The notes: generated by a model from the sequence alone, not told the origin. Positions 28,311 through 50,707 are shown, numbered from the stretch's first letter. The stretch: DNA of 64,000 nucleotides from Deltaproteobacteria bacterium (GCA_016219115.1 JACRCH010000016.1:22294-86293), one strand, 5' to 3'. Program-made: numbers and translations.

Positions 28311-29165
28311 TCACGGTTTGGAAGTGACGACCCTTCCCCAGAGGTCTTTCGTCCCCCAAATACCCGAGCGCAGCGATTCGAGCAGTATTATCTGGCTGTG
28401 GTCCACGAAGAGGTTCACCTCCGGGCCATAGTTTTTTATGTACCAGCCGAAGACCTCCGGGTCGGCGGCCTCGAACATCGTCTTCTCAAGCCCCAATTCC
28501 TTGACAAAGGCCGTTATGATGTCTGTCCTCCATGAGCGGACCTGCTCGGTTATCCCTTCGGACTCGATCATTATCATATAGGCGCCGGCGTCAAGGTGCT
28601 TTTTCGCCTGCTCGACGGCCCAGCCCGGGTCGCTCGTACCCTCGGCCTCCAACTCCGCGACGGCGCTTGCTCCGCCGGAGCCGAATTGCACCCCGACCTC
28701 GGCCTTTACCTCGAGGCCCGCTTTGCGCGCCCTCTTCGTCAGGCGGACAAGGTCGTCCGCGGGGACCGTGATGAAGCCCTTTGATATCTCTATTATGTCG
28801 AAGCCGATGTTTTTGCACTCAAGGATGTATCTTTCCACGGCGTCTTTGCCGAGCGTGAGGACATGTTCGATGTAGCCGCCGGTGTCGGCCTTGACATCGT
28901 ATCTGTGGCAGAGGTCGATGAGTTCCATGACGGCCTTTTTCGGCATGAGGCTGAAGGACCCTCCGGCGAACTTCAGGATGTCGATGTATTGGCCCATCGT
29001 CTCAAGGATGTCTTCGAGGTAGCGCTTGCCCATCGGGGTGTAGTAGGGGCCGCGTATCTCGGTGACGCCGCGCTTGCGGGGTTTACCCTCCCGCTCGTTT
29101 AAAGGGAGAAAGGAGAAGGCCCTTTCCGTCGCGTTGCCCTTCGCCCTTTTTTTCTCGTCGGCCAT
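28311..29165 (-). CDS. phosphosulfolactate synthase (ComA) family protein
   Basis: GVTEIRGPYY...YIDILKFAGGSFSL...GFDIIEISKGFITVP...AGLEVKAEVGVQFG parallels the ComA/(2R)-phospho-3-sulfolactate synthase fold. It runs block by block with the ComA pattern G.T...DKG...YID.VKFGWGTS...GF..VEISDG. Confidence 0.65.
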   Translation of the reverse strand: MADEKKRAKGNATERAFSFLPLNEREGKPRKRGVTEIRGPYYTPMGKRYLEDILETMGQYIDILKFAGGSFSLMPKKAVMELIDLCHRYDVKADTGGYIEHVLTLGKDAVERYILECKNIGFDIIEISKGFITVPADDLVRLTKRARKAGLEVKAEVGVQFGSGGASAVAELEAEGTSDPGWAVEQAKKHLDAGAYMIMIESEGITEQVRSWRTDIITAFVKELGLEKTMFEAADPEVFGWYIKNYGPEVNLFVDHSQIILLESLRSGIWGTKDLWGRVVTSKP

Positions 29166-29227
29166 CGTTAGCCTCCTTTGTCTGTCGTCTCTGCCGGTCC
29201 CGTACGCCCGAAGCGGTCCGGGCGGGT

Positions 29228-29275
29228 GCGGTTTTAATCACAAAATTCCATGTAGCTTGCTCCGGGGTGGTTCAT
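29228..29275. repeat. short leader (TTTTAATCACAAAATTCC) plus R1 hairpin unit
   Basis: The same 18-nt leader precedes the repeats at 30737, 33418 and 43151. Confidence 0.6.
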
Positions 29276-30642
29276 GGCCGGGCCGCCTTTGAGAGCGGCT
29301 CCATCAGTTCCGCCGCGGTGATCCCCTCGATATTTTTCACCCGCCCGATGATGTCGGCCTGAAGCCTGGCGTCGATAAAAGGCCCGGTGAGCCTTATAAA
29401 CTTCTCCTCGACCCGTTCCCAGCCCATGGGGCTGGTGCGGAAGCCCTCGTAGCCTGTCTTCTCTCTTGTAAGGGTCCGCCCGTCCTTAAGCCTTACCGTG
29501 AGGCCGCAGGCGTGTCTTTCGGGAAAGAGCCGGGTAAGCTTCTCACTCGGGCGGACAATGACTTTTTTGAGAAGCCGCTGCACGTCGTCTCTTATTATCC
29601 TCTCGGGGGCGTACTCTTCGGGCATCACCTTGCCGTCAAGAAGCGCGACGGCCACCAGGAACTTAAGGCTGTGGTCGGCCTCTTCCTTCGTCCTGACCCT
29701 TGTCTTGTCGCCCTCAACGCCGCCGCCTATGATATCATAGGCGGCCTGAAAGATATCTATCTCGACGGAATCGACATCACGGGCCGAAAAACAGTGCTCT
29801 GCCTGAAGCTCGAGCGCGCCTTCAATCGCGGACTGCGAGTGTATCTCGGCGTTGTACTTCTTGAGTATCGTCCATGTCACCCGCTCAAGGTTCTCGTTCG
29901 ACCAGTCGATGACGAACTTCCCGGAGATGGATTCCATAAAGCCTTTGTTCCCCTCGAAGACCTCTTTCGGCCCCGTTACTCCCCTCATGGCGAGAAAAGC
30001 GGCGTTAGAGCAGCAGAAGGCGGCGTTCGGGTACGCCAGCCCCTTCCAGTGGCTGAGTTCCCCGGTGCGGGTCACCCTGAGCGCGTTGAAGGCCGTGCCT
30101 GAGATGGCGACGGCGTTTGTGGTCTGTTCGCCGTTTAAGCCCAATGCCTTTGAGACCCCGGCGGCCAGAGCGAAGGAGCCCTGAGTAGTGTGGTCAAAAC
30201 CCTTTGAGCGCACGGGGGCGACGTCACTTAGCCTGCATTGGACCTGGTAAGCCACGGCCAGCGCCGTCAGGAGGTCTTTCCCGCTTGCCCCTTTGTACTC
30301 GGCGGCGGAGAGCACAGCCCCGAGGTTGTCGCTCGGGTGGCAGGTCTCTCCCGGGGCCATGTAGCTGTCGTTAAAGTCGAGGTAGCGGACAAGGGCGCTG
30401 TTGTAGAAGGCCGCCTGAGAGGGCGAGGTCTTGCCGCCGCCTATGAGCGTAGAGAGGGGGTTGCCGCCGAACTCTTCTATCTGGGCTCTTATCATCCGCA
30501 CGGGCGGTTCGTTTCGCGCTCCGACGGCGCACCCCAGCGAGTCAAGCAGACGGAGCTTCAGCTGGACCAGTGCCTCCCTGGAGATATCCTCGTAGGAGGC
30601 CGATACGACGAAGTCCGCAAGTCTTTGAGCGTCGGTCATCAC
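29272..30642 (-). CDS. MmgE/PrpD family protein (2-methylcitrate dehydratase-like)
   Basis: The N-terminus (LADFVVSASYEDISREALVQLKLRLLDSLGCAVGA) is the MmgE/PrpD signature. 456 aa. Confidence 0.8.
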   Translation of the reverse strand: MMTDAQRLADFVVSASYEDISREALVQLKLRLLDSLGCAVGARNEPPVRMIRAQIEEFGGNPLSTLIGGGKTSPSQAAFYNSALVRYLDFNDSYMAPGETCHPSDNLGAVLSAAEYKGASGKDLLTALAVAYQVQCRLSDVAPVRSKGFDHTTQGSFALAAGVSKALGLNGEQTTNAVAISGTAFNALRVTRTGELSHWKGLAYPNAAFCCSNAAFLAMRGVTGPKEVFEGNKGFMESISGKFVIDWSNENLERVTWTILKKYNAEIHSQSAIEGALELQAEHCFSARDVDSVEIDIFQAAYDIIGGGVEGDKTRVRTKEEADHSLKFLVAVALLDGKVMPEEYAPERIIRDDVQRLLKKVIVRPSEKLTRLFPERHACGLTVRLKDGRTLTREKTGYEGFRTSPMGWERVEEKFIRLTGPFIDARLQADIIGRVKNIEGITAAELMEPLSKAARP

Positions 30643-31008: not shown

Positions 31009-31983
31009 ATGAGCAAGGGTCCCGTATCACAGTTTATTGAAAGGCATTATCTCCATTTCAATTCGGCGGCGCTCGTTGACGCGGCCAGGGCGTACGAGGC
31101 GCATCTGGTCAAGGGAGGCAAGATGATGGTGACGCTCGCGGGCGCCATGAGCACTGCCGAACTCGGCAAATCCCTGGCCGAGATGATACGCCAGGGCAAG
31201 GTAGACATAATCACCTGCACGGGGGCGAACCTCGAAGAGGACGTCTTCAACCTCGTGGCGCATACGCACTACAAGAGGATCCCCAATTACAGGGACTTGA
31301 CCCCCGGGGAGGAATGGGAACTCCTGCAGAAGGGTTTTAACAGGGTCACCGACACCTGCATCCCCGAAGGCGAGGCGATAAGGAGGATCGAGCACCATAT
31401 CTACAAGCTCTGGCAGGAAGCCAACGACAAGGGTGAGGAGTACCTGCCGCACCAGTTCTTCTACGCGTTACTCCGCAGCGGTGTCCTTCAGCAGTACTAC
31501 GAGATTGACACAAAGGACAGCTGGCTTCTGGCGGCCTCTGAAAGGGACCTGCCGATAATAGTGCCGGGCTGGGAGGACTCCACGCTCGGCAACATCTTCG
31601 CCTCATACTGCATAACCGGGGAGCTCAAGCAGTCCACCGTCAGGTCGGGAATAGGCTACATGACGTTCCTGGCTGACTGGTACACGAAGAACAGCAAGGG
31701 CGCCGGAATAGGCTTCTTTCAGATAGGCGGAGGCATAGCCGGGGACTTCCCGATATGCGTCGTTCCGATGCTCCAGCAGGACCTGAAGAAAAAGGAGACC
31801 CCCTTCTGGGCGTACTTCTGCCAGATATCGGACTCCACCACGAGCTACGGGTCGTACTCCGGGGCCGTGCCGAACGAGAAGATAACATGGGGCAAACTCT
31901 CGGCCGAGACCCCGAGGTTCATAGTCGAGTCAGACGCTACGATAGTCGCCCCGCTCATCTTCGCGTGGATATTGGGCTGGTAA
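31009..31983 (+). CDS. deoxyhypusine synthase-like (DHS-like) NAD-binding protein
   Basis: MVTLAGAMSTAELGKSLAEMIRQGKVDIITCTGANLEEDVF matches the DHS-family pattern (TSNLISSG...VDVIVTTAGGIEED). The length of 324 aa is typical of bacterial DHS-like proteins. Confidence 0.75.
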   Translation: MSKGPVSQFIERHYLHFNSAALVDAARAYEAHLVKGGKMMVTLAGAMSTAELGKSLAEMIRQGKVDIITCTGANLEEDVFNLVAHTHYKRIPNYRDLTPGEEWELLQKGFNRVTDTCIPEGEAIRRIEHHIYKLWQEANDKGEEYLPHQFFYALLRSGVLQQYYEIDTKDSWLLAASERDLPIIVPGWEDSTLGNIFASYCITGELKQSTVRSGIGYMTFLADWYTKNSKGAGIGFFQIGGGIAGDFPICVVPMLQQDLKKKETPFWAYFCQISDSTTSYGSYSGAVPNEKITWGKLSAETPRFIVESDATIVAPLIFAWILGW

Positions 31984-39996: not shown

Positions 39997-41145
39997 ATGA
40001 AGTCAGGGTCAGGGCCGTTCAAAGGTTTCCCGGTAGAAAGAGAAGAGAAGAAAGCCGAGAACGATTTTTTCAAGCTCCTTGAACTGAAAGGCATATCGAG
40101 GAGAAGTTTTTTAAAGTACTGCGCCTCCACGGCCGCCCTTTTAGGTCTATCCGGCCTCCATGCGCCCATGATAGCCGAAGCCATCGAGAAGATGGCAAAA
40201 CGCCCGTCCGTAGTATGGCTCTGCTTCATGGAATGCCTCGGCTGCACCGAGTCCTTCGCCAACGCCACATACCCCGAGATAGACAAACTCATACTCGAGA
40301 TGATAAGCCTCGAGTACCACGAGGCCCTGATGGCCGCCGCCGGAGAGCGGGCCCATGAGAACCTCTGGAACGCCGTCAAGGAAGGCGGATACCTCTGCAT
40401 CGTCGAAGGCGCGGTGGCCACGAAGATCCCGAGCGCCATGACCGTAGGCGGCATGACCTCTATCGAGATAATGGAGAAGGTCGGCAGGAAGGCCAAAGCC
40501 GTGATAGCCGTAGGCACGTGCGCCACCCACGGGGGCACGCAGGGCGCCTCCCCTAACCCGACCGGGGCCGTGGGGATAGTCGAATTTTTCAAGACGAAGT
40601 CCATCGCTACACCTGTCATCAACCTCACGGGCTGTCCGGTGAACCCCGAAAATATCATCTCTACGGTACTCCATGTGCTGCTCCTCAACAAGCTCCCGGA
40701 GCTCGATGCTTACCAGAGGCCCTTGGAGCTGTACGGCCAGACTATCCACGACAACTGCCCGAGAAGGGCGCACTTCGACGAGGGACGCTTTGTGGAGGTC
40801 CTCGGGAGCAAGGAAGAATCCCTCGGGTACTGTCTCTACAAGGTAGGGTGCAGGGGCCCCCAGACCTACGCAAACTGCCCGAAGGTCCTCTGGAACAACC
40901 GCCAGAACTGGTGCATAGGCGTGGCCCCGTGCATCGGATGTTTTGAGCCGTACTTCTGGGACAGGTTCAGGGACTTCTATAAACCCCTGCCCGATGTGAA
41001 GCTCCCGGGCGTCACCACGAGCGCGGATAAGATAGGCATGGGCATAGCCGCGGCTACGGCCGCAGGGGTCGGGGCGCACCTCATCGGAAAGGCCCTCAAG
41101 GGAAAGAAGAAGGAGGGGGACTCCGAAGGGGAGGAGAAGAAGTAG
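39997..41145 (+). CDS. [NiFe]/[NiFeSe] hydrogenase small subunit with Tat signal peptide
   Basis: A twin-arginine motif (SRRSFLKYCASTAALLGL), the N-terminal Cys cluster (CFMECLGCTES) and further Cys motifs (GTCATHGG, CPVNPE, CPRRAHFDEG, CLYKVGCRGP, CPKVLW, CIGCFEP). Confidence 0.9.
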   Translation: MKSGSGPFKGFPVEREEKKAENDFFKLLELKGISRRSFLKYCASTAALLGLSGLHAPMIAEAIEKMAKRPSVVWLCFMECLGCTESFANATYPEIDKLILEMISLEYHEALMAAAGERAHENLWNAVKEGGYLCIVEGAVATKIPSAMTVGGMTSIEIMEKVGRKAKAVIAVGTCATHGGTQGASPNPTGAVGIVEFFKTKSIATPVINLTGCPVNPENIISTVLHVLLLNKLPELDAYQRPLELYGQTIHDNCPRRAHFDEGRFVEVLGSKEESLGYCLYKVGCRGPQTYANCPKVLWNNRQNWCIGVAPCIGCFEPYFWDRFRDFYKPLPDVKLPGVTTSADKIGMGIAAATAAGVGAHLIGKALKGKKKEGDSEGEEKK

Positions 41146-41516: not shown

Positions 41517-43136
41517 ATGGGGCAAAGGATAGTAATAGACCCGATAACGAGGATCGAGGGCCATCTGAGGATAGAGGTCGAGATAGCGGGCGGCAAAGTA
41601 ACAAACGCCTGGAATACGACCACGCTTTTCAGGGGCTACGAGATAATACTGCAGGGCAGGGACCCCAGGGACGCCTGGCACTTCTCCCACAGGATCTGCG
41701 GCATATGCCCCACGTCGCACGGACACACGGCCTCGATGAGTCTCGAGGATTCCTTCAAAGTAAAGCCGCCGGACAACGCGAGGATCATCAGGAACCTGAT
41801 GGAGGCCGCCCAGATAGGATACGACCACATACTCTGGTTCTATATCCTGAACGGCTTCGACTATGTCGATGTGGTCAGCGCCCTGAAGGCCAGGCCGAAA
41901 TCGCCGTCATTGAAGAAAGTCCAGGAGAGGATAAAGGCCTACGTTGACAGCGGGCAGCTCGGATTCCTCGGTAACGCCTACTGGGGCGCCCCCGAATACA
42001 AGCTCCCTCCGGAATTAAACCTCGAGCTTGTGGCGCACTACCTCGAATCGATCAAGGTGAAATCGCTGGCCACCGAAGCCGCGGCGGTATTCGGCGGCAA
42101 GTTCCCTTATGTGATGAGCACCCCTCCGGGAGGCGTGACCTGCGTGCCGACGCTCACGATGATAGCCGACTATCAGGACAAGATGAACAAGGTCAGGGCA
42201 TTCGTGGACGATACGGTCATCCCGGACCTGCTGGCGATAGCGCCGTACTACCTCTATCTTAAGGACTACGGGCCGGGGCACAAAAACTATCTCTCGATGG
42301 GCGTGCTCGACAGTAAGAGTCAGGACCCGTACGAGAGGCTCTTCCCCAGGGGCGCCATATTCTCGGACGCGCTGAAAATAGAGAAGGTGGACCTCCTCAA
42401 GGATATCGAGGAGTATGTCGGCCACAGCTGGTACACGGACCAGAGCGGCGGCGGCAGAAACCCCATGAACGGCGTGACGGAGCCGAAGTTTACCGGGCAG
42501 GAAGGGATAAAGGAGATAGACCACGAAGGCAAGTACGACTGGACAAAGGCCGTAAGGTTCAGGGGCAAGCCCATGGAGGGCGGCCCGCTGGCGCAGATGC
42601 TCACGGCGTACCTTGCCGGCAGGCCCCAGGCCAAAAAGCTCGTCGACGGTCTCCTCTCGGCCGTGGGCGCCCCTGGCAAGCTCAATATACTCCACTCCAT
42701 CCTCGGAAGGGTGGCTGCCAGGGTCTTAAAGCTCAAGATGACACTCGATGAGGTGGACGGCTGGGTCAACGAGCTTGTGGCCAACATCAAGGGCGGCGAC
42801 ATGCGTTTTTACACGCCTTACGAGATACCGGATTCGGCCAGCGGGGTAGCCGGGTGGGACGCCCCGAGGGGCTGCATAACCGACTACAATGTGATAGAGG
42901 GCGGGAAGCTCAAGCTCTGGCAGGCAGTACCGGCGTCGAACTGGAACTTCTCGCCGAGGGACGACAAGGGGGTAAGGGGGCCCGCCGAGGAGGCCCTGAT
43001 AGGAGTGCCGGTCCAGGACCCGAAGAAGCCGCTCGAGGTCTTGCGATTGATACACTCCTTCGACCCCTGAATGGCCTGCGCGGTTCACGTGATTGAACCG
43101 GAGACAAACGAGATACTCAAGTTCAGGGTAAGATGA
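41517..43136 (+). CDS. [NiFeSe] hydrogenase large subunit; selenocysteine encoded by in-frame TGA at 43068-43070
   Basis: The N-terminal Ni-binding motif RICGICPTSHGH is present. The annotated ORF stops at a TGA located exactly where the first Cys of the C-terminal DPCxxCxxH motif should be; read-through gives DP-U-MACAVHV-IEPETNEILKFRVR before the real stop at 43134-43136. A hairpin follows 11 nt later. Confidence 0.8.
43081..43100 (+). promoter_or_regulatory. SECIS-like hairpin downstream of the UGA
   Basis: CGGTTCA-CGTGAT-TGAACCG forms a 7-bp stem with a 6-nt loop, starting 11 nt 3' of the TGA. Confidence 0.5.
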
Positions 43137-43411: not shown

Positions 43412-44002
43412 GTGCTCACGATGGGAGAACGGTACTTGAGGCATGATTTTTTTGAGAGGGCCGTCCATTGGGTGATGGCCCTCTCGGTAATACTGCTCAT
43501 CCCGAGCGGCCTTGACATCCGCTTTCCGGGCCTCATCCCCTGGGGCTTCGGTACGATGAACTCGGCCCGGTTCATCCACTTCGTCTCGATGTACGCGCTC
43601 ATATTCTCGTGGCTGGCGTACACCATTCATCTCATCGTTGATGAGTTCAAAACGGAGATAATCCGCTGGAGCGACATAAAGGGGCTGCCGGAGATGGTGA
43701 GGCACTATCTCTTCCTCACGGAGAAGCGCCCGGCCTATCCAAAGTACAACCCCTTGCAGAAGCTTGCTTTCAATATCGTATGGGTTATGATACTCATACA
43801 GGCCGCGACCGGTGCCATGCTCTACTGGCCCGCCCTGACCATGGGGATAACGAGCTACTTCGGGGGCCTGATGGCCGTGAGGGTCCTCCATGATTTCATG
43901 ACATATATCTTCATTTCCTTTATAATAATCCACATATACCTTGTATTAAGCTCGGATATAAGAAATCTGTGGGCCATGATCAACGGTTACTCGTACAGAT
44001 GA
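43412..44002 (+). CDS. Ni/Fe-hydrogenase b-type cytochrome subunit (HyaC/HupC-like)
   Basis: 196 aa, four TM helices with conserved His residues (HWVMA, HFVSMY, HDFMTYIFISFIIIHIY). Its position after the large subunit supports the call. Confidence 0.7.
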   Translation: MLTMGERYLRHDFFERAVHWVMALSVILLIPSGLDIRFPGLIPWGFGTMNSARFIHFVSMYALIFSWLAYTIHLIVDEFKTEIIRWSDIKGLPEMVRHYLFLTEKRPAYPKYNPLQKLAFNIVWVMILIQAATGAMLYWPALTMGITSYFGGLMAVRVLHDFMTYIFISFIIIHIYLVLSSDIRNLWAMINGYSYR

Positions 44003-44174: not shown

Positions 44175-44681
44175 ATGGCTAAAGCGAAGAAGGACAAGAG
44201 ATATCTGGTGCTCGGGGTAGGCAACATCCTCTTAAAAGACGAGGGCCTCGGCGTAAGGGCCATTGAGTACATCCGGGAAAGATACTCGGTCCCGGAATCC
44301 GTCAGCGTCGTCGACGGCGGGACCGGGGGCTTGAACCTTTTATCCCTCATAAGGGACTTCGACCACATAATCATCGTCGACGCCGTAGCCCCGAGGACCA
44401 CTCCCGGCGCTCTCTACAGAATACCCGGCAAGATGCTGCCCAAGAGTCCGCCTCTCATGACCACGGCGCACCAGCTCGGCGTCAGTGACATGCTGGCCAT
44501 AGCGGACCTCGAAGGCTACGACCCGGATGTCGTCGTTATAGGGATGGAACCCAAGGAGATCTCCGTCAGCCTGGAGCTGTCAAGCGTCATAAGGGAGAAG
44601 CTCCCGGAGGTAGCCGAGATGGTGGCTAAAGAGCTTGAGGGGTTCGGGGTCGTCCTGAGGGAGAGAAGCGGGCGTGCATGA
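44175..44681 (+). CDS. hydrogenase maturation endopeptidase (HyaD/HybD family)
   Basis: YLVLGVGNILLKDEGLGVRAIEYI...VVDGGTGGLNLL...IIIVDAV matches the HybD family. Confidence 0.85.
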   Translation: MAKAKKDKRYLVLGVGNILLKDEGLGVRAIEYIRERYSVPESVSVVDGGTGGLNLLSLIRDFDHIIIVDAVAPRTTPGALYRIPGKMLPKSPPLMTTAHQLGVSDMLAIADLEGYDPDVVVIGMEPKEISVSLELSSVIREKLPEVAEMVAKELEGFGVVLRERSGRA

Positions 44682-45015
44682 GATGTCGATCACTATGAGC
44701 ATGATGGAGATAGTCAAGGAGCAGATGATTAAACACGGCGTCAAGGACCTCAAAAGGCTCAAGGTCCGGGTCGGGGAACTGACGGCCGTGGAGCCTGAGG
44801 CCTTGCAGTTCTGTTTCGAGGTATACGTGAAGGGCACGCCTATGGAAGGGGCCGCCCTCGAGATAGAAGAAGCGCCGTTGATGGGAAGGTGCGTTGATTG
44901 CGATGAGGAGTTCCGGATGGAGTACTTCCTGCAAGCATGCCCCAGGTGCGAAGGCGGCGCGGTAACGAAAACAACGGGCCACGAGCTCGACATAGTGTCC
45001 ATGGAGGCGGAGTAA
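44674..45015 (+). CDS. hypA: hydrogenase nickel incorporation protein HypA
   Basis: MHEMSI N-terminus and C-terminal zinc-finger pairs (CVDCDEEF ... CPRCEGG). 113 aa. Confidence 0.85.
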   Translation: MHEMSITMSMMEIVKEQMIKHGVKDLKRLKVRVGELTAVEPEALQFCFEVYVKGTPMEGAALEIEEAPLMGRCVDCDEEFRMEYFLQACPRCEGGAVTKTTGHELDIVSMEAE

Positions 45016-45018
45016 GAT

Positions 45019-45693
45019 ATGCACGACATCCTGATAGAAGAAGGCGTCCTGGCGAAGAACGACGGGATAGCCGGGGAGAACAGGGAGATGCTCCGCGGCA
45101 GGGGGATATACTCCATTAACATGGTAAGCTCGCCGGGCTCGGGTAAGACCTCGATAATAGAAAAGACGGCCGGGCTTCTTGACGGGCTCTTGAGGCTCGC
45201 GGTGATAGAGGGCGACATCGAGACCGACCTCGACGCTGAGAGGATAAGGAGGCACGGCGTCCCGGCAAAGCAGATAACTACGGGGAGGGCATGCCACCTT
45301 GACGCACACCATGTGCACCACGCGCTCCCGTGGCTCTTTGAGCAGGACGGGATAAGGCTTCTTATAATAGAGAATGTCGGCAACATGGTCTGCCCCGCCG
45401 AGTACGACCTCGGCGAAGAGATGAAGGTAGCGGTTATGAGCGTTGCCGAGGGGGACGACAAGCCGCTTAAGTACCCGGCCCTCTTCAGCGCCTCGCAGGC
45501 GCTCATCATAAACAAGACGGACCTCCTGCCCTACACGGACTTCAACATGCACAGGGCGAGGGAGAACGCATTGCGGATAAACCCGGAGTTAAAGGTTTTT
45601 GAGACCTCGTGCACGAAGGGGACGGGGCTTCAGGAGTGGTGCGGGTTTCTTCTCAGTTCCGCCGGAGCGGCGGCAAAGGCGCCGGTGAAATAA
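45019..45693 (+). CDS. hypB: hydrogenase nickel incorporation GTPase HypB
   Basis: P-loop (SSPGSGKTS), a CH motif (GRACHLDAHHV), ENVGNMVCP and NKTDL. Confidence 0.9.
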   Translation: MHDILIEEGVLAKNDGIAGENREMLRGRGIYSINMVSSPGSGKTSIIEKTAGLLDGLLRLAVIEGDIETDLDAERIRRHGVPAKQITTGRACHLDAHHVHHALPWLFEQDGIRLLIIENVGNMVCPAEYDLGEEMKVAVMSVAEGDDKPLKYPALFSASQALIINKTDLLPYTDFNMHRARENALRINPELKVFETSCTKGTGLQEWCGFLLSSAGAAAKAPVK

Positions 45694-45818
45694 AAGCGGC
45701 CGCCTGCGGATGGAAGGAAGGGAACGGGGGCGGCCCGGCGCCGGGGGCGGAAATAAAAGAGTACAAGGAGAGGGCCGGCGGCGCATTCCAAGCGGCGTTT
45801 AAGGCTGCGTATAAAACC

Positions 45819-47114
45819 ATGTGTCTGACCATACCGGCGAAAGTCATAGCGATCGATAATCCGGTGCCGGGCTTTCCGGTAGCGAACATCACCGTCGAGG
45901 ACTCAAAGGGCAGGAAGGAAATAAAATCCCTGTGGCTGCCGGAGCTCAAGGTCGGCGACTGGGTGCTCTATGCCTACGACACGGCGATACGCAAGGTAAG
46001 CGAGGAGGACGCCAGAGAGATACTGGAGCTGCTCGAGCCCAAAAAGCATATCGACATATCCGCTTTGGACACCGGCTTCCTCGAAGTCCTGAAGGGCCAT
46101 TCCACGGGTAATCTCTCAAGGGACGGGATAGTGAGGCTTTTGAAGACCGAAGACCCCTTGGAGATGGAGACCCTCTTTGCCGAGGCCAATACCGTAAGGC
46201 AGGCTTCCTTGAGGGATTTTTTCTGTATCCACGGGATAATGGAGTTCTCGAACCACTGCGCCATGAACTGCTTCTACTGCGGCTTGAGGAGAGACTCCGC
46301 TGACGTGGTTCGCTACAGGATGACCCCGGATGAGATAGTGGGCGCGGTCGAAGACGCCGTCAACAGGCGCGGGTACAAGCTCATAGTGCTGCAGTCAGGC
46401 GATGACTTCCATTATACCGACATCAAGCTCGTGGAGATAATCAGGAGGATAAAAAAGTCCTCCAAGGTCTTTATCTTCATGAGCGTGGGGGAGCGCAGTA
46501 TCGAGTGCTACCGGAGGATGAAGGCTGCCGGGGCCAGCGGCGTGCTCTTCCGCTTCGAGACGTCCAACCGGGAGATCTACAACCTGATACATCCGGGCCA
46601 GTCATATGACCGGAGGATGGAGCTGTTGAAGGGGATGAAAGAGCTCGGTTACTACATAGCCTCAGGTTTTCTCATCGGCCTGCCGGGCCAGACGGCGGAA
46701 GACATCGCCGATGACATACTCGCCATGAAGGCGCTGAAAGTCAACATGGCCTCCATAGGCCCCTTCATCCCGTGCGCCTCGACTCCCCTGGCGACGCATC
46801 AGGCCGGGAGCGCGGAAATGACCCTGAAGGTGACCGCTGTCCTGAGGCTGCTGATGCCAAGGGCGAAGATCCCGGTCACGACAGCCCTTGAAACCATTGA
46901 GAGCGAAGAGGGCAGGAGGCTCGGGCTCTCCTCCGGGGCGAATTCGCTCATGTTCAACCTCACGCCCGAGAGATACAGGGGCGACTACAGGATATATCCG
47001 AACAAGTACCACGGCAAGGAGGAGGTCTGGGAGAAGTACGGTCTCTTTAACGAAGAACTCAGCTACAGGATGCTCGAGAAGAAGATGTTCGAGGCCTTCG
47101 AGGTGCTGAAATGA
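45819..47114 (+). CDS. HypC-like chaperone domain fused in-frame to a HydE-like radical SAM enzyme
   Basis: N-terminus: MCLTIPAKVIAIDN...KVGDWVLYAYDTAI...EDAREILELLE matches the HypC/HupF signature (MC[LI]..P, KVGD[WY]VL). It continues without a stop into LSRDGIVRLLKTEDPLEMETLF...IMEFSNHCAMNCFYCGLRRDSADVVRYRMTPDEI...IVLQSGDD...GPFIP, matching HydE (CxxxCxYCGLRRDN, VLQSGED). The start is placed at the Met of MCLTIP (coordinate derived from ORF-track residue count, about +/-3 nt). The 70 codons upstream in the track overlap hypB. Confidence 0.65.
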   Translation: MCLTIPAKVIAIDNPVPGFPVANITVEDSKGRKEIKSLWLPELKVGDWVLYAYDTAIRKVSEEDAREILELLEPKKHIDISALDTGFLEVLKGHSTGNLSRDGIVRLLKTEDPLEMETLFAEANTVRQASLRDFFCIHGIMEFSNHCAMNCFYCGLRRDSADVVRYRMTPDEIVGAVEDAVNRRGYKLIVLQSGDDFHYTDIKLVEIIRRIKKSSKVFIFMSVGERSIECYRRMKAAGASGVLFRFETSNREIYNLIHPGQSYDRRMELLKGMKELGYYIASGFLIGLPGQTAEDIADDILAMKALKVNMASIGPFIPCASTPLATHQAGSAEMTLKVTAVLRLLMPRAKIPVTTALETIESEEGRRLGLSSGANSLMFNLTPERYRGDYRIYPNKYHGKEEVWEKYGLFNEELSYRMLEKKMFEAFEVLK

Positions 47115-48502
47115 CAACCGGCGCATGGACGGAGACATTCATAGACGATAGAAGGATCGGCTCGGCGCTCGAGAAGTCCGCAAAGCCCTCGAAAAAAGCT
47201 GTGACGGAACTCCTCGCCAAAGGGCGCTCCCTTGCCGGGCTTACCCCCGAAGAGGCCGCGGTCCTGTTAAACGCCGAAGGTGAAGAGGCAAGGGCCGCGA
47301 TATTCGAGACCGCGACCCGCATCAAGAACGCCATATACGGCGACAGGCTGGTCTTTTTCGCCCCGCTCTACCTGAGCAACTACTGCGTGAACGACTGCGT
47401 TTACTGCGGGTTTCATTCCAGCAACAAGGCCGTCCGCAAAAAACTGACGATGGACGAGATAAGGGGGCAGGTCCGCCTGCTGATAGAGATGGGCCACAAG
47501 AGGCTGCTGCTTGAGGCCGGCGAGGACCCCGTGCACAACCCCATAGACTATCTCCTCGAAGCCGTAGACACTATCTACTCCGTCAAGACCGACAAGGGCG
47601 AGATAAGACGCCTGAACGTAAACATCGCCGCCACGAGCGTGGAGGACTACAGGCTCCTGAAAGCCAGGGGTATCGGCACATATCAGCTCTTCCAGGAGAC
47701 CTACCACAGGGCCACCTTTGAACGGCTGCACAGGGGGCCAAAGGGCGACTACCGCAGACAGCTCTATGCCATGGACAAGGCCTTCGAGGCCGGTATTGAC
47801 GATGTCGGCCTCGGTGTCCTCTTCGGCCTCCATGACTGGCGGTTCGAGGCGCTCGGGCTCGTCTCGCACGCCGAGTACCTCTCGAAGGCATTCGGAGTGG
47901 GCCCCCATACCATCTCGGTTCCGAGGTTCAGGCCCGCCGCGTCGGTGGAGCTTACGCCCGGATTTCCAGTAAGCGACGAAGACTTCCTGAAGCTCATAGC
48001 GGTCTTGAGGATAGCGGTCCCTTATACGGGGATGATAATAACTACACGGGAGAGGCCTGAGATAAGGGAGGCCGCCTTCAGGATAGGCATAAGCCAGACG
48101 AGCGCCGCGTCTTCTACTACCCCCGGCGGCTTCGGCCAGAAGGGAGAGCAGGGGGTGGAGCAGTTCGCGCTCTCGGACAAAAGGACCCTCGATGAGATAG
48201 CGATAAGCGTCATGAAGCAGGGCTACACCCCGAGCTTCTGCACCGCCTGCTACCGGAAAAAGAGGACAGGCGGTACATTCATGGACCTGGCCAGGCCCGG
48301 CGACATACAAGAGTTCTGCACTCCCAACAGCATCCTGACGCTCTTTGAATATATCGAAGACATCGCCTCTCCGGAGAGCAAGGCCCTCGGCATGGAGATA
48401 ATAAGGAAATCGCTTGAAAGCATCGAAAACCCCACTATAAAAGAAGAGACGGAAAAAAAACTTGAGAGGATCAGGCGGGGCGAAAGGGACCTTTATTTCT
48501 GA
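47111..48502 (+). CDS. HydG-like radical SAM tyrosine lyase (ThiH/HydG family with C-terminal CX2CX22C auxiliary-cluster motif)
   Basis: A radical SAM motif (CVNDCVYCGFHS). The C-terminus has SFCTACYRKKRTGGTFMDLARPGDIQEFC, which is exactly C-x2-C-x22-C as in HydG; this is absent from ThiH. The ATG overlaps the stop of the upstream gene. Confidence 0.75.
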   Translation: MTTGAWTETFIDDRRIGSALEKSAKPSKKAVTELLAKGRSLAGLTPEEAAVLLNAEGEEARAAIFETATRIKNAIYGDRLVFFAPLYLSNYCVNDCVYCGFHSSNKAVRKKLTMDEIRGQVRLLIEMGHKRLLLEAGEDPVHNPIDYLLEAVDTIYSVKTDKGEIRRLNVNIAATSVEDYRLLKARGIGTYQLFQETYHRATFERLHRGPKGDYRRQLYAMDKAFEAGIDDVGLGVLFGLHDWRFEALGLVSHAEYLSKAFGVGPHTISVPRFRPAASVELTPGFPVSDEDFLKLIAVLRIAVPYTGMIITTRERPEIREAAFRIGISQTSAASSTTPGGFGQKGEQGVEQFALSDKRTLDEIAISVMKQGYTPSFCTACYRKKRTGGTFMDLARPGDIQEFCTPNSILTLFEYIEDIASPESKALGMEIIRKSLESIENPTIKEETEKKLERIRRGERDLYF

Positions 48503-48910: not shown

Positions 48911-50707
48911 ATGTATCACAGGAAAAGACCGATGTTTCTGCCGACGACAAAAAAGGAGATGGAGGCGCTTGGCTGGGAGGGCCTCGATATAATACTGGTA
49001 ACGGGCGACAGCTATATCGATTCGCCCTTCGTCGGAGTGGCCGTAATAGGCAAGGTCCTCCTTGACTCCGGTTACAGGGTCGGCGTAATAGGGCAGCCGG
49101 AAATAAGTTCCGATGTTGACATCCTGCGCCTCGGCGAGCCGCGTCTGTTCTGGGGCGTTACTGGCGGCTGTATCGACTCCATGGTCGCCAACCGTACGGC
49201 GACAGGCCGCAGACGCAAGAGCGACGACTATACTCCCGGCGCCGTAAACAACCGGCGTCCGGACCGGGCCGTCATCGCCTACGCCAATCTCATCAGAAGA
49301 TATTGTAAAAAAGGGAGCCGCCCTATCGTCCTGGGAGGGATCGAAGCGAGTCTGCGCCGGATAGCCCATTATGATTTCTGGACAGACAGGATAAGAAGGT
49401 CCATCCTCTTTGACGCGAAAGCCGATTACCTTCTTTACGGGATGGCGGAGCGTTCCGTCGTTGAACTGGCCGAACGCTTAAAGGAAGGGAAAGACCCCGG
49501 AAGCGTGCGCGGACTCTGCTATATCTCCAAAGACCTCCCGGATGGCTGTCTGGAGCTTTCCGCGTTCGAGGAGTCTTCAAAAGACAAGGACGCTTTCACG
49601 AGGGTCTTCCAGGCATTCTACGATAACAACGACCCGGCTACGGCCCGCCAGCTGGCCCAAAAGCACGACACCCGTTATCTCATCCAGAACCCCCCGGCGT
49701 TCTATCTCTCACAGAAGGAACTTGACAGGGTATACGGCCTGGGATACGAGCGGGACGCCCACCCCTACCACCTTAAGGACGGCGAGGTAAAGGCCCTTGA
49801 GACGATCCGTTTCTCCATTTCCACGCACCGCGGATGTTACGGTGAATGCGGTTTTTGCGCCATCGCCGTTCACGAAGGCCGCCGCGTGAGGAGCAGGAGC
49901 AAGGAGTCGATCCTTGCCGAGGCCGGGGAGATGACCCGGCACCCCCTGTTTAAGGGAAGGATCCATGACGCGGGCGGACCGTCGGCGAATATGTACGGGT
50001 CCGGCTGCGAGCGGATGGAGAAAAAAGGCTGCTGTCCGAAGAAGAGCTGCATCTCCCCGAAGGTCTGTCCCCTTCTCAAATTAGGCCACGCTGAACTGCT
50101 GTCGCTGCTTAAGGCGCTGCGAGCCGTCAAGGGGGTTAAAAAGGTCGTCGTTGCCTCGGGACTGCGCCACGACCTGGTGCTGGCGGACAAAAAAGACGGA
50201 GAGAGATACCTTAAGGAGTTGGTCCTGCACCATGTCTCCGGACAGATGAAGATAGCCCCCGAGCACTCGGAGGCCAACGTGCTCGAGAAGATGGGCAAAC
50301 CCGGCTGCGACCGGGACGCCCTTATAAAGTTCAAGGAGCTTTTTTACAGGTTTACGCAGGAGGCTGGGCTGAAGCAGTTTTTATCCTACTACCTGATGGC
50401 CGCCCATCCCGGCTGTGACATTAGCGATATGAAAAGGCTCAAGTCGTTTGCCTTGAAAGAGCTCGGCACGCTGCCGGAGCAGGTCCAGGTATTCACGCCC
50501 ACCCCATCGACATATTCCACCCTCATCTACTGGACCGAACACGACCCCAAAACCGGCAAACCCTGTTTTGTGGAAAAGAGCGAGAGAGGCAGGGAAGAAC
50601 AGAAGTCCATACTGGCGGGTCCGAATATCAGGAACGAGAAGAAGCGAGAGCAGGACCCTAAAAGACATGGTCTTAAAAAGACTCACTTCAGGGGGAGGGG
50701 GAGATAA
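48911..50707 (+). CDS. YgiQ family (UPF0313) radical SAM protein
   Basis: The N-terminal domain (LDIILVTGDSYIDSPFVGVAVIGKVL) and the radical SAM cluster motif (HRGCYGECGFCAI) in its characteristic position. The C-terminal domain is Lys/Arg-rich. Confidence 0.8.
   Translation: MYHRKRPMFLPTTKKEMEALGWEGLDIILVTGDSYIDSPFVGVAVIGKVLLDSGYRVGVIGQPEISSDVDILRLGEPRLFWGVTGGCIDSMVANRTATGRRRKSDDYTPGAVNNRRPDRAVIAYANLIRRYCKKGSRPIVLGGIEASLRRIAHYDFWTDRIRRSILFDAKADYLLYGMAERSVVELAERLKEGKDPGSVRGLCYISKDLPDGCLELSAFEESSKDKDAFTRVFQAFYDNNDPATARQLAQKHDTRYLIQNPPAFYLSQKELDRVYGLGYERDAHPYHLKDGEVKALETIRFSISTHRGCYGECGFCAIAVHEGRRVRSRSKESILAEAGEMTRHPLFKGRIHDAGGPSANMYGSGCERMEKKGCCPKKSCISPKVCPLLKLGHAELLSLLKALRAVKGVKKVVVASGLRHDLVLADKKDGERYLKELVLHHVSGQMKIAPEHSEANVLEKMGKPGCDRDALIKFKELFYRFTQEAGLKQFLSYYLMAAHPGCDISDMKRLKSFALKELGTLPEQVQVFTPTPSTYSTLIYWTEHDPKTGKPCFVEKSERGREEQKSILAGPNIRNEKKREQDPKRHGLKKTHFRGRGR

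Follow-up and report, generated by a model that had tools for sequence, protein, structure and literature searches.

A HypC–HydE fusion beside HydG in a [NiFe(Se)] hydrogenase operon: a candidate radical-SAM route to the [NiFe] cofactor

Introduction

The window analysed here is a stretch of 64,000 nucleotides from a Deltaproteobacteria bacterium (GCA_016219115.1 JACRCH010000016.1:22294-86293). On its plus strand it carries a gene in which a HypC domain is fused to a HydE-like radical S-adenosylmethionine (SAM) domain, and the next gene encodes HydG. HypC acts in the maturation of [NiFe] hydrogenases; HydE and HydG are maturases of [FeFe] hydrogenases. According to two papers from 2025, every [NiFe] hydrogenase owes its cofactor to six Hyp proteins (PMC12134894, PMC12130793). 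The anaerobic origin of its carbon monoxide (CO) ligand has been named the most pressing open question (review PMC12134894). The fusion and HydG may form a radical-SAM module dedicated to [NiFe] enzymes.

The fused gene and HydG

The two genes comprise the following features, with amino acids (aa) counted from the start of the fusion.

45819-46034 (+), HypC domain of the fusion, aa 1-72; whole model of PF01455 HupF_HypC, 56.2 bits, E 3.7e-15, cutoff 28.5.
46035-46100 (+), linker between HypC and HydE, aa 73 to about 94, set between the Pfam and NCBIfam domain limits.
46101-47114 (+), HydE radical-SAM domain, aa 95-431; TIGR03956, 277.8 bits on aa 95-410, cutoff 254.6.
47111-48502 (+), HydG, radical-SAM tyrosine lyase (synthase of CO and cyanide, CN); full model of TIGR03955, 571 bits, cutoff 312.

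The fused gene (45819-47114, plus strand) is a single reading frame of 431 aa with 0 internal stops. The open reading frame (ORF) extends from 45609 to 47114 (+), and no stop separates the HypC-like part from the HydE-like part. A GTG at 45609 offers an upstream start, which was dropped because MCLTIPA opens every homologue. All homologues starting in this way, the true start is therefore the ATG at 45819, and the HypC cysteine is residue 2.

The first-pass annotation had described HypC as continuing in frame into HydE. Both the frame and the Pfam and NCBIfam profile matches bear this out. A stop or frameshift between the two parts, which would have undone the fusion, was looked for; none lies in the ORF, and over 150 distinct proteins share the architecture. 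A sequencing or assembly artefact at the junction was rejected on the same grounds, together with the even G+C content across it (0.57 / 0.54 / 0.57). Profile searches for HypC (PF01455) and for the HydE and HydG TIGRFAMs match all three families above the PF01455, TIGR03956 and TIGR03955 cutoffs.

A second HypC model, TIGR00074, gives 44 bits on the window fusion, just below its cutoff of 48. Of four fusion relatives, three reach 50.7-57.7 bits and the fourth 44.9, below the cutoff. The HydE model TIGR03956 gives 273-371 bits on relatives of the fusion. Pfam Radical_SAM matches aa 141-299 of the window protein, and the radical-SAM motif CX3CX2C is found as CAMNCFYC at aa 147 (cysteines C147, C151 and C154). 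The motif VLQSGDD is also found. In an AlphaFold2 (AF2) model, the predicted local distance difference test (pLDDT) score is about 68 for aa 71-80 of the linker, the lowest in the N-terminal half, and 89 for aa 81-90.

The hydG ATG overlaps the fusion TGA as ATGA, which is taken as translational coupling. The protein has the HydG type that had been proposed for it, with its 571-bit TIGR03955 match, a CX3CX2C motif at aa 92 and the C-terminal CX2CX22C motif at aa 377. It matches the crystal structure 4WCX with 548 bits, and the histidine of its 'LVSHAEY' aligns with that of 'MLYHANH' in 4WCX, which is presumably the dangler-iron ligand (His265).

After a gap of 400 nt, hydG is followed by a YgiQ-family radical-SAM gene (48911-50707, TIGR03904, 759 bits). 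This gene was left out of the system because it has no conserved adjacency to the fusion in other loci.

The [NiFe(Se)] operon

Upstream of the fusion lie the genes of a membrane-anchored [NiFe(Se)] hydrogenase and its nickel and processing factors.

39997-41145 (+), [NiFe(Se)] small subunit with the twin-arginine translocation (Tat) signal RRSFLK; Pfam Oxidored_q6 and NiFe_hyd_SSU_C, TIGR00391 343 bits, TAT signal domain.
41517-43136 (+), putative [NiFeSe] large subunit; Pfam NiFeSe_Hases, 494 bits.
43412-44002 (+), b-type cytochrome membrane anchor; Pfam Ni_hydr_CYTB, 100 bits.
44175-44681 (+), hydrogenase maturation endopeptidase; Pfam HycI 97 bits, TIGR00072 140 bits.
44674-45015 (+), HypA nickel metallochaperone; TIGR00100, 104 bits, cutoff 88.
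45019-45693 (+), HypB nickel GTPase; TIGR00073, 257 bits, cutoff 121.

The gene order in the window is thus small subunit, large subunit, cytochrome b, protease, hypA, hypB, fusion, hydG. The profile matches agree with the first-pass annotation, which had placed the pair in a [NiFeSe] hydrogenase/hypAB operon with the HypC part directly after hypA-hypB. Its claim that hypD, hypE and hypF are absent from the window also stood. A tblastn search of the 64 kb with E. coli HypD, HypE and HypF and a group A [FeFe] HydA gave a best match of only E 0.65, and Pfam scans of 29 large window ORFs found no HypD/E/F or [FeFe] HydA family.

The large-subunit gene has an in-frame TGA at 43068-43070, within DP-U-MACAVH, followed by a C-terminal extension of 15 residues. 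Its translation through the TGA reads ...HSFDP*MACAVHVIEPETNEILKFRVR*, with stop codons as asterisks. The motif by itself suggests that the TGA is read as selenocysteine. Compared with shuffled sequence, the hairpin downstream of the UGA shows no gain in folding (z 0.18), and it is no convincing selenocysteine insertion sequence (SECIS). Scans of the window for tRNA and Rfam families found no tRNA, and so no tRNA-Sec, and no Rfam match. On the part of the large subunit before the TGA, NF033181 gives 476 bits, below its cutoff of 600.

Distribution of the fused family

A search of a 5.8-billion-protein collection found more than 100 protein clusters with both PF01455 and PF04055, at 50-96% identity. 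A scan of one genome per species gave 114 relatives, of which 80 loci were retained; all 80 are fused from query residue 1. The survey of other genomes for HypC–HydE fusions, envisaged from the start, thus yielded more than 150 distinct fused sequences, and 153 were compared in an alignment of the HypC residues.

Hosts of the fusion include Thermodesulfobacteriota/Deltaproteobacteria, Brocadiaceae and other Planctomycetota, Methylomirabilis and many lineages of Patescibacteria. It is also found in Omnitrophota, Elusimicrobia, Saganbacteria, WOR-3, Atribacterota, a complete genome of Caldatribacterium and one archaeon. At NCBI the fused proteins are labelled '[FeFe] hydrogenase H-cluster radical SAM maturase HydE'. 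Labels of this kind ('[FeFe] hydrogenase maturase HydE/HydG') hide the HypC domain, so that metagenome surveys could wrongly infer [FeFe] capacity in genomes of the candidate phyla radiation (CPR), Omnitrophota and anammox bacteria.

An extreme form of the architecture is a triple fusion, HypC–HydE–HydG, of 881 aa. It surfaced when residues 1-100 (HypC and linker) were used as a query without profiles, a query too short to gauge family size. The protein scores 50.7 bits with TIGR00074, above the cutoff, 371 bits as HydE and 631 bits as HydG. It is present in two independent assemblies (L171 10001-12646 and ERR12035938). In its locus, from CPR, it is flanked on one side by the β/γ genes of a group-3b hydrogenase and on the other by the genes for the small and large subunits, and HypA is close by. 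By its profile matches, the triple fusion is a joining of all three predicted activities in one polypeptide in a [NiFe] context.

Gene neighbourhoods

A census was made of the 80 retained loci and the window, 81 loci in all, over ±10 kb. ORFs were called, clustered all-against-all and labelled by seeds and profile searches. HydG is present in 63 of the 81 loci and directly adjoins the fusion in 53. A [NiFe] large subunit is found in 50 (62%). Any [NiFe] structural or maturation gene is found in 57, and in 50 loci it lies no more than three genes from the fusion.

HypD, HypE and HypF were found in none of the 81 loci (tblastn with the E. coli proteins, E < 1e-3), and the CxH…HCxxC cluster motif of HydF was likewise found in none. 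[FeFe] HydA occurs in three and is missing from the other 78. After HydG, the most frequent neighbours are the large, δ, γ and β subunits of group-3b hydrogenases, the protease, HypA and HypB, and then group 4 Mbh-like subunits.

Operons with the fusion and HydG belong to [NiFe] groups 1 (the NiFe(Se) enzyme of the window), 3b and 4, in at least eight phyla. Their gene orders are strikingly regular. In Omnitrophota the order is HypA–3b β–γ–δ–large–protease–FUSION–HydG. In Planctomycetia it is group 4 Mbh-like … protease–HypA–FUSION–Rex–HydG, and in CPR 3b β–γ–FUSION–HydG–δ–large–HypA. Brocadiaceae have FUSION–HydG–HypA–HypB–small–large. Independent contigs with pre-computed Pfam annotation give the same picture.

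Two proteins closely related to the window fusion (76% and 81% identical to it) are encoded in protease–hypA–hypB–FUSION–hydG or hypA–hypB–FUSION–hydG cassettes with no structural genes. Judged by gene content, such a maturation-only cassette is in effect a hyp operon in which the fusion and hydG appear to have taken the place of hypCDEF, at its usual position after hypAB.

A reverse test started from group-3b large subunits. Among 80 metagenome loci, three have the fusion, five (about 6%) have HypD/E/F and none has both. This either/or pattern is consistent but weak, most of the contigs being short. A baseline for hyp co-localisation from PMC12727194 was set aside because that study had seeded its search with hyp genes.

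Two observations concern the hydrogenase genes of these loci. Large subunits beside the fusion (L023, L026, L029, L031, L035, L040 and others) often stop at the last histidine of DPCxxCxxH, and loci of this kind usually have no canonical HycI-family protease gene. Where the large subunit has a C-terminal extension, as in Omnitrophota and the window, a protease gene adjoins it.

In metagenome-assembled genomes (MAGs) of Kuenenia (L002 / L019 19503-20988), a type I restriction-modification system lies between the fusion and hypA/hypB. The sole NiFeSe_Hases match there is a 66-aa fragment, and the 10 kb around hold no HydG. These MAGs may show the module in decay.

Loci with an [FeFe] hydrogenase

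The three HydA-bearing loci (L067, L077 and L083) come from one Omnitrophota lineage, and HydA lies within about 6 kb of the fusion. In L067 (5350-21229), a NiFe-3b operon and its protease are followed directly by the fused gene, and then by Rex and a histidine kinase. The locus continues with a HydC/HydB/HydA group A6 [FeFe] hydrogenase (NF040763, 833 bits), TM1266, HydG and an unfused HydE-like ORF. This ORF has the canonical signature 'GADRYLL'; it is partial at the end of the locus and was assigned without a profile. The genes of L077 follow the same order and likewise end in a HydE-like ORF, and L083 stops within HydA.

In L067 and L077, then, the HydE paralogue fused to HypC accompanies the [NiFe] enzyme, and the unfused HydE-like copy accompanies the [FeFe] enzyme. 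HydG may be shared by the two hydrogenases in this lineage. The expectation that the fusion would co-occur with [NiFe] and not with [FeFe] hydrogenases does not hold throughout, failing in these three of the 81 loci.

Catalytic and ligand residues

The HydE domain is predicted to fold like T. maritima HydE (TmHydE). The AF2 model has a pLDDT of 85.5 and a predicted template modelling (TM) score, pTM, of 0.86, and its top Foldseek matches are TmHydE structures, including synthon-bound forms, with target-normalised TM scores of 0.85-0.91. By sequence, the domain matches T. maritima HydE structures with 238 bits. TmHydE numbers were transferred through a phmmer alignment (native = chain number − 10, verified on C63, C67 and C70).

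In TmHydE, Fe(I)(CO)2(CN)S intermediates are bound by M224 and M291, and the lysine of the radical relay is K309 (PMC11826987). The aligned residues of the fusion are M310, M378 and K396. Among 44 diverse fused proteins (alignment A1), both methionines are invariant and the lysine is at least 90% conserved. With these equivalents conserved, the HydE domain should be able to take in the synthon made by HydG and act on it.

The fused family also has residues of its own. Cys136 and His138 (46224-46232) are invariant in it, within the motif [KR]DF[FI]CIHG. The corresponding positions are H..R in TmHydE and L..R in the unfused Omnitrophota HydE-like ORF. Cys136 and His138 could serve as extra metal ligands near the barrel entrance. 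The window fusion has seven cysteines in total, none of them beyond aa 319, and it has no C-terminal auxiliary-cluster cysteines.

In the HypC domain, the N-terminus Met-Cys-Leu-Thr-(Ile)-Pro is invariant, and Cys2 is present in all 153 distinct fused proteins. The domain is N-terminal in every fusion, as is expected if a free N-terminal cysteine is needed. The position of E. coli HypC His51 is a histidine in none of the 153; A, I, T, S, V or M stands there instead. His51 of HypC and Cys41 of HypD have been implicated in holding the iron on HypCD (PMC12134894).

Some Thermodesulfobacteriota have a stand-alone canonical HypC directly upstream of the fusion (L031, L082, L043, L049, L052, L029 and L045). 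L046 also has a stand-alone HypC, and L036 has such a copy and no called fusion ORF. His51 is kept in the two stand-alone copies examined (L031 5900-6124 and L082 6836-7060).

A different stand-alone HypC was seen in CPR-like metagenome loci of group 3b (L097 7273-7473, and also L093, L096 and L101). It is 66 aa long and has no His51 equivalent (Gln in L097), and no HydE, HydG or HypDEF was found within 10 kb of it.

In the large subunits beside the fusion, the usual Arg, Pro-Thr and four-Cys motifs are intact (alignment A2). These motifs include the residues that contact cyanide in [NiFe] structures.

Proposed pathway

The reading slightly favoured on balance is a [NiFe]-dedicated radical-SAM route that would pass an Fe–CO/CN unit to the tethered HypC, the module replacing HypD, HypE and HypF. 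With the same modest lean towards acceptance, HypC–HydE and HydG may be regarded as the iron-ligand half of a [NiFe(Se)] maturation kit, with HypA, HypB and the protease as its nickel and processing half. The first-pass annotation had put forward a radical-SAM route feeding the [NiFe(Se)] chaperone as a candidate. This idea gains considerable support from the embedding in [NiFe] operons across at least eight phyla, in none of the 81 loci beside HypD/E/F or HydF, and from the Omnitrophota lineage in which the [FeFe] enzyme has an unfused HydE-like ORF alongside (L067 and L077).

In the proposed mechanism, HydG would cleave tyrosine and build an Fe–CO/CN synthon on its C-terminal cluster, as suggested by near-complete conservation with structurally characterised HydG. 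The HydE domain would take this synthon and strip off its cysteine carrier in a radical reaction, so that a mononuclear Fe(CO)x(CN)y unit stays on the conserved methionines, as residue conservation suggests. Strong homology underlies these predicted HydG and HydE steps. The product would then bypass HydF; architecture and gene context point to the tethered HypC capturing it on the free Cys2 and inserting it into the apo large subunit, the usual role of HypC. HypA and HypB would add nickel, after which the protease would trim the C-terminal extension. The module would take over the roles of HypD, HypE, HypF and the anaerobic CO source alike.

A more specific form of this pathway has hypD/E/F absent genome-wide, all three diatomic ligands derived from tyrosine via HydG, and HydE releasing a mononuclear unit onto the fused HypC. 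This form is held tentatively, at somewhat less than an even chance.

Alternative explanations

Several observations weigh against replacement of HypD/E/F. In 24 of the 81 loci there is no [NiFe] gene in the available sequence. The absence of HypD/E/F is limited to the ±10 kb neighbourhoods and the 64-kb window. Because HypD/E/F lie near only 5 of 80 unselected group-3b loci, zero in 50 is suggestive, not overwhelming. The stand-alone canonical HypC beside the fusion (L031, L046, L052 and L082) is most sensible if those genomes have HypD. HydG makes two CO and one CN, and the [NiFe] site holds one CO and two CN; a ligand exchange step would be needed to bridge this mismatch. The standard large-subunit motifs would argue for the usual Fe(CN)2CO ligand set. 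Some of these points are accommodated by a feeder that supplies only CO, in which HydG and the fusion would load Fe–CO (or Fe–CO–CN) on HypC anoxically, with HypD/E/F encoded elsewhere supplying cyanide from carbamoyl phosphate. Such a feeder would be an anaerobic counterpart of HypX. It would sidestep the ligand mismatch, fits the separate canonical HypC, bearing His51, that some Thermodesulfobacteriota encode directly ahead of the fusion, and is compatible with an absence of HypD/E/F scored in neighbourhoods and window. It would also answer an acknowledged gap of the Hyp pathway, the anaerobic CO source (PMC12134894). However, HypD/E/F adjoin the fusion in 0 of 81 loci, though hypA, hypB and the protease often do, and the fused HypC is without the His51 of the HypC–HypD iron site in 153 of 153 proteins. 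Very small CPR operons hold only HypA, the fusion, HydG and structural genes, and HydG unavoidably yields cyanide along with CO. A CO-only feeder is therefore considered unlikely, while keeping appreciable weight; replacement of the entire HypD/E/F module accords with the data no less well.

The genes might also be ordinary [FeFe] H-cluster maturases, a HydE subfamily with a HypC-like oligonucleotide/oligosaccharide-binding (OB) fold, with HydF and an [FeFe] hydrogenase elsewhere and the [NiFe] proximity a matter of clustering or co-regulation. HydE and HydG do score above equivalog cutoffs, and the NCBI names agree. None of the known catalytic residues is lost. Among them are the two methionines that, in canonical HydE, have been proposed to bring together a pair of Fe(I) units as a dimer, so that ordinary [2Fe]-precursor chemistry fits the methionine pair equally well, a further point against the favoured pathway. 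In three Omnitrophota loci a group A [FeFe] hydrogenase lies no more than about 6 kb away, and the view of the window's genome spans 64 kb. Yet the HydF motif is missing from all 81 loci and HydA from 78, and L067 and L077 pair the [FeFe] system with an unfused HydE-like ORF of its own. In distant phyla the pair interrupts the [NiFe] structural genes or lies between hypB/protease and the end of the operon, and the fused HypC still has the invariant N-terminal Cys by which the [NiFe] iron carrier is defined. The [NiFe] large subunit lies within 10 kb in 62% of loci, against a few per cent by chance as a rough estimate that was not computed. Ordinary [FeFe] maturases are thus improbable. More improbable still is a different product, some other molecule or modification made by the HydE domain and HydG, with HypC merely docking on the large-subunit precursor. 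HydE does belong to a BioB/PylB/HmdB-like group with diverse substrates, and the invariant Cys136 and His138 of the fused family are missing in TmHydE. Against this stand a HydG very near the characterised enzyme, with a complete C-terminal cluster motif, the conserved HydE residues that bind the HydG synthon, and large subunits with standard active-site motifs.

Relation to known systems

HydE, HydG and HydF. The module shares with this system its equivalog scores, its radical-SAM and CX2CX22C motifs and the equivalents of TmHydE M224, M291 and K309. Its genes adjoin and are translationally coupled, as hydE and hydG often are. It differs in having no HydF in 81 neighbourhoods and usually no [FeFe] hydrogenase, and in sitting in [NiFe] operons. 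Its HydE differs by the N-terminal HypC, by Cys136/His138 and by the absence of C-terminal auxiliary-cluster cysteines.

The HypC/D/E/F scaffold. Shared features are the position after hypA/hypB, a HypC with the essential N-terminal Cys, and the partners HypA, HypB, protease and large subunit. In contrast, the module has no HypD/E/F in its neighbourhoods, and its HypC is without His51 and fused to an enzyme of 340 aa. The scaffold takes its ligands from carbamoyl phosphate, whereas those of the module would come from tyrosine via radical-SAM chemistry.

HypX. Like this aerobic CO source, the module would be a carbonyl-supply route encoded with hyp genes. The fold and chemistry of HypX are unrelated, involving formyl-tetrahydrofolate and formyl-CoA. 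HypX functions under oxic conditions and in addition to HypC-F, whereas the module occurs in anaerobes and seemingly takes over from HypD-F.

HydEF. Posewitz et al. are said to have described, in 2004, a HydEF fusion in Chlamydomonas reinhardtii. There too HydE is fused to the presumed receiver of its product. HydEF has HydF as the C-terminal partner and serves an [FeFe] enzyme; the module has HypC as the N-terminal partner and stands in a [NiFe] context.

HybG, HupF and HoxL. These are HypC-family domains dedicated to particular hydrogenases, as is proposed for the fused HypC. They are small and still work with HypD, and none is fused to a radical-SAM enzyme, in all of which the fused HypC differs. 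HupF carries an extension (PMC12134894).

A literature search of open-access papers and bioRxiv found no link of HydE, HydG or radical SAM to [NiFe] maturation and no HypC–HydE fusion. The component families are all known; the pathway would be new if the function holds. It would then be a second, radical-SAM pathway to the NiFe(CN)2CO cofactor, partly shared with [FeFe] maturation. The assumed universality of HypCDEF would be broken, and the maturation of the two main hydrogenase classes would be linked. The module would also be a direct, testable candidate for anaerobic supply of CO (and CN), and a compact maturation kit of two to three genes for heterologous production of [NiFe] hydrogenases.

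Other genes of the window

Two further observations in the window are unrelated to the fusion. On the minus strand at 28311-30642, a gene for phosphosulfolactate synthase ComA (268 bits) lies beside one for a PrpD/MmgE-family protein. On the plus strand, a deoxyhypusine synthase-like gene is found at 31009-31983.

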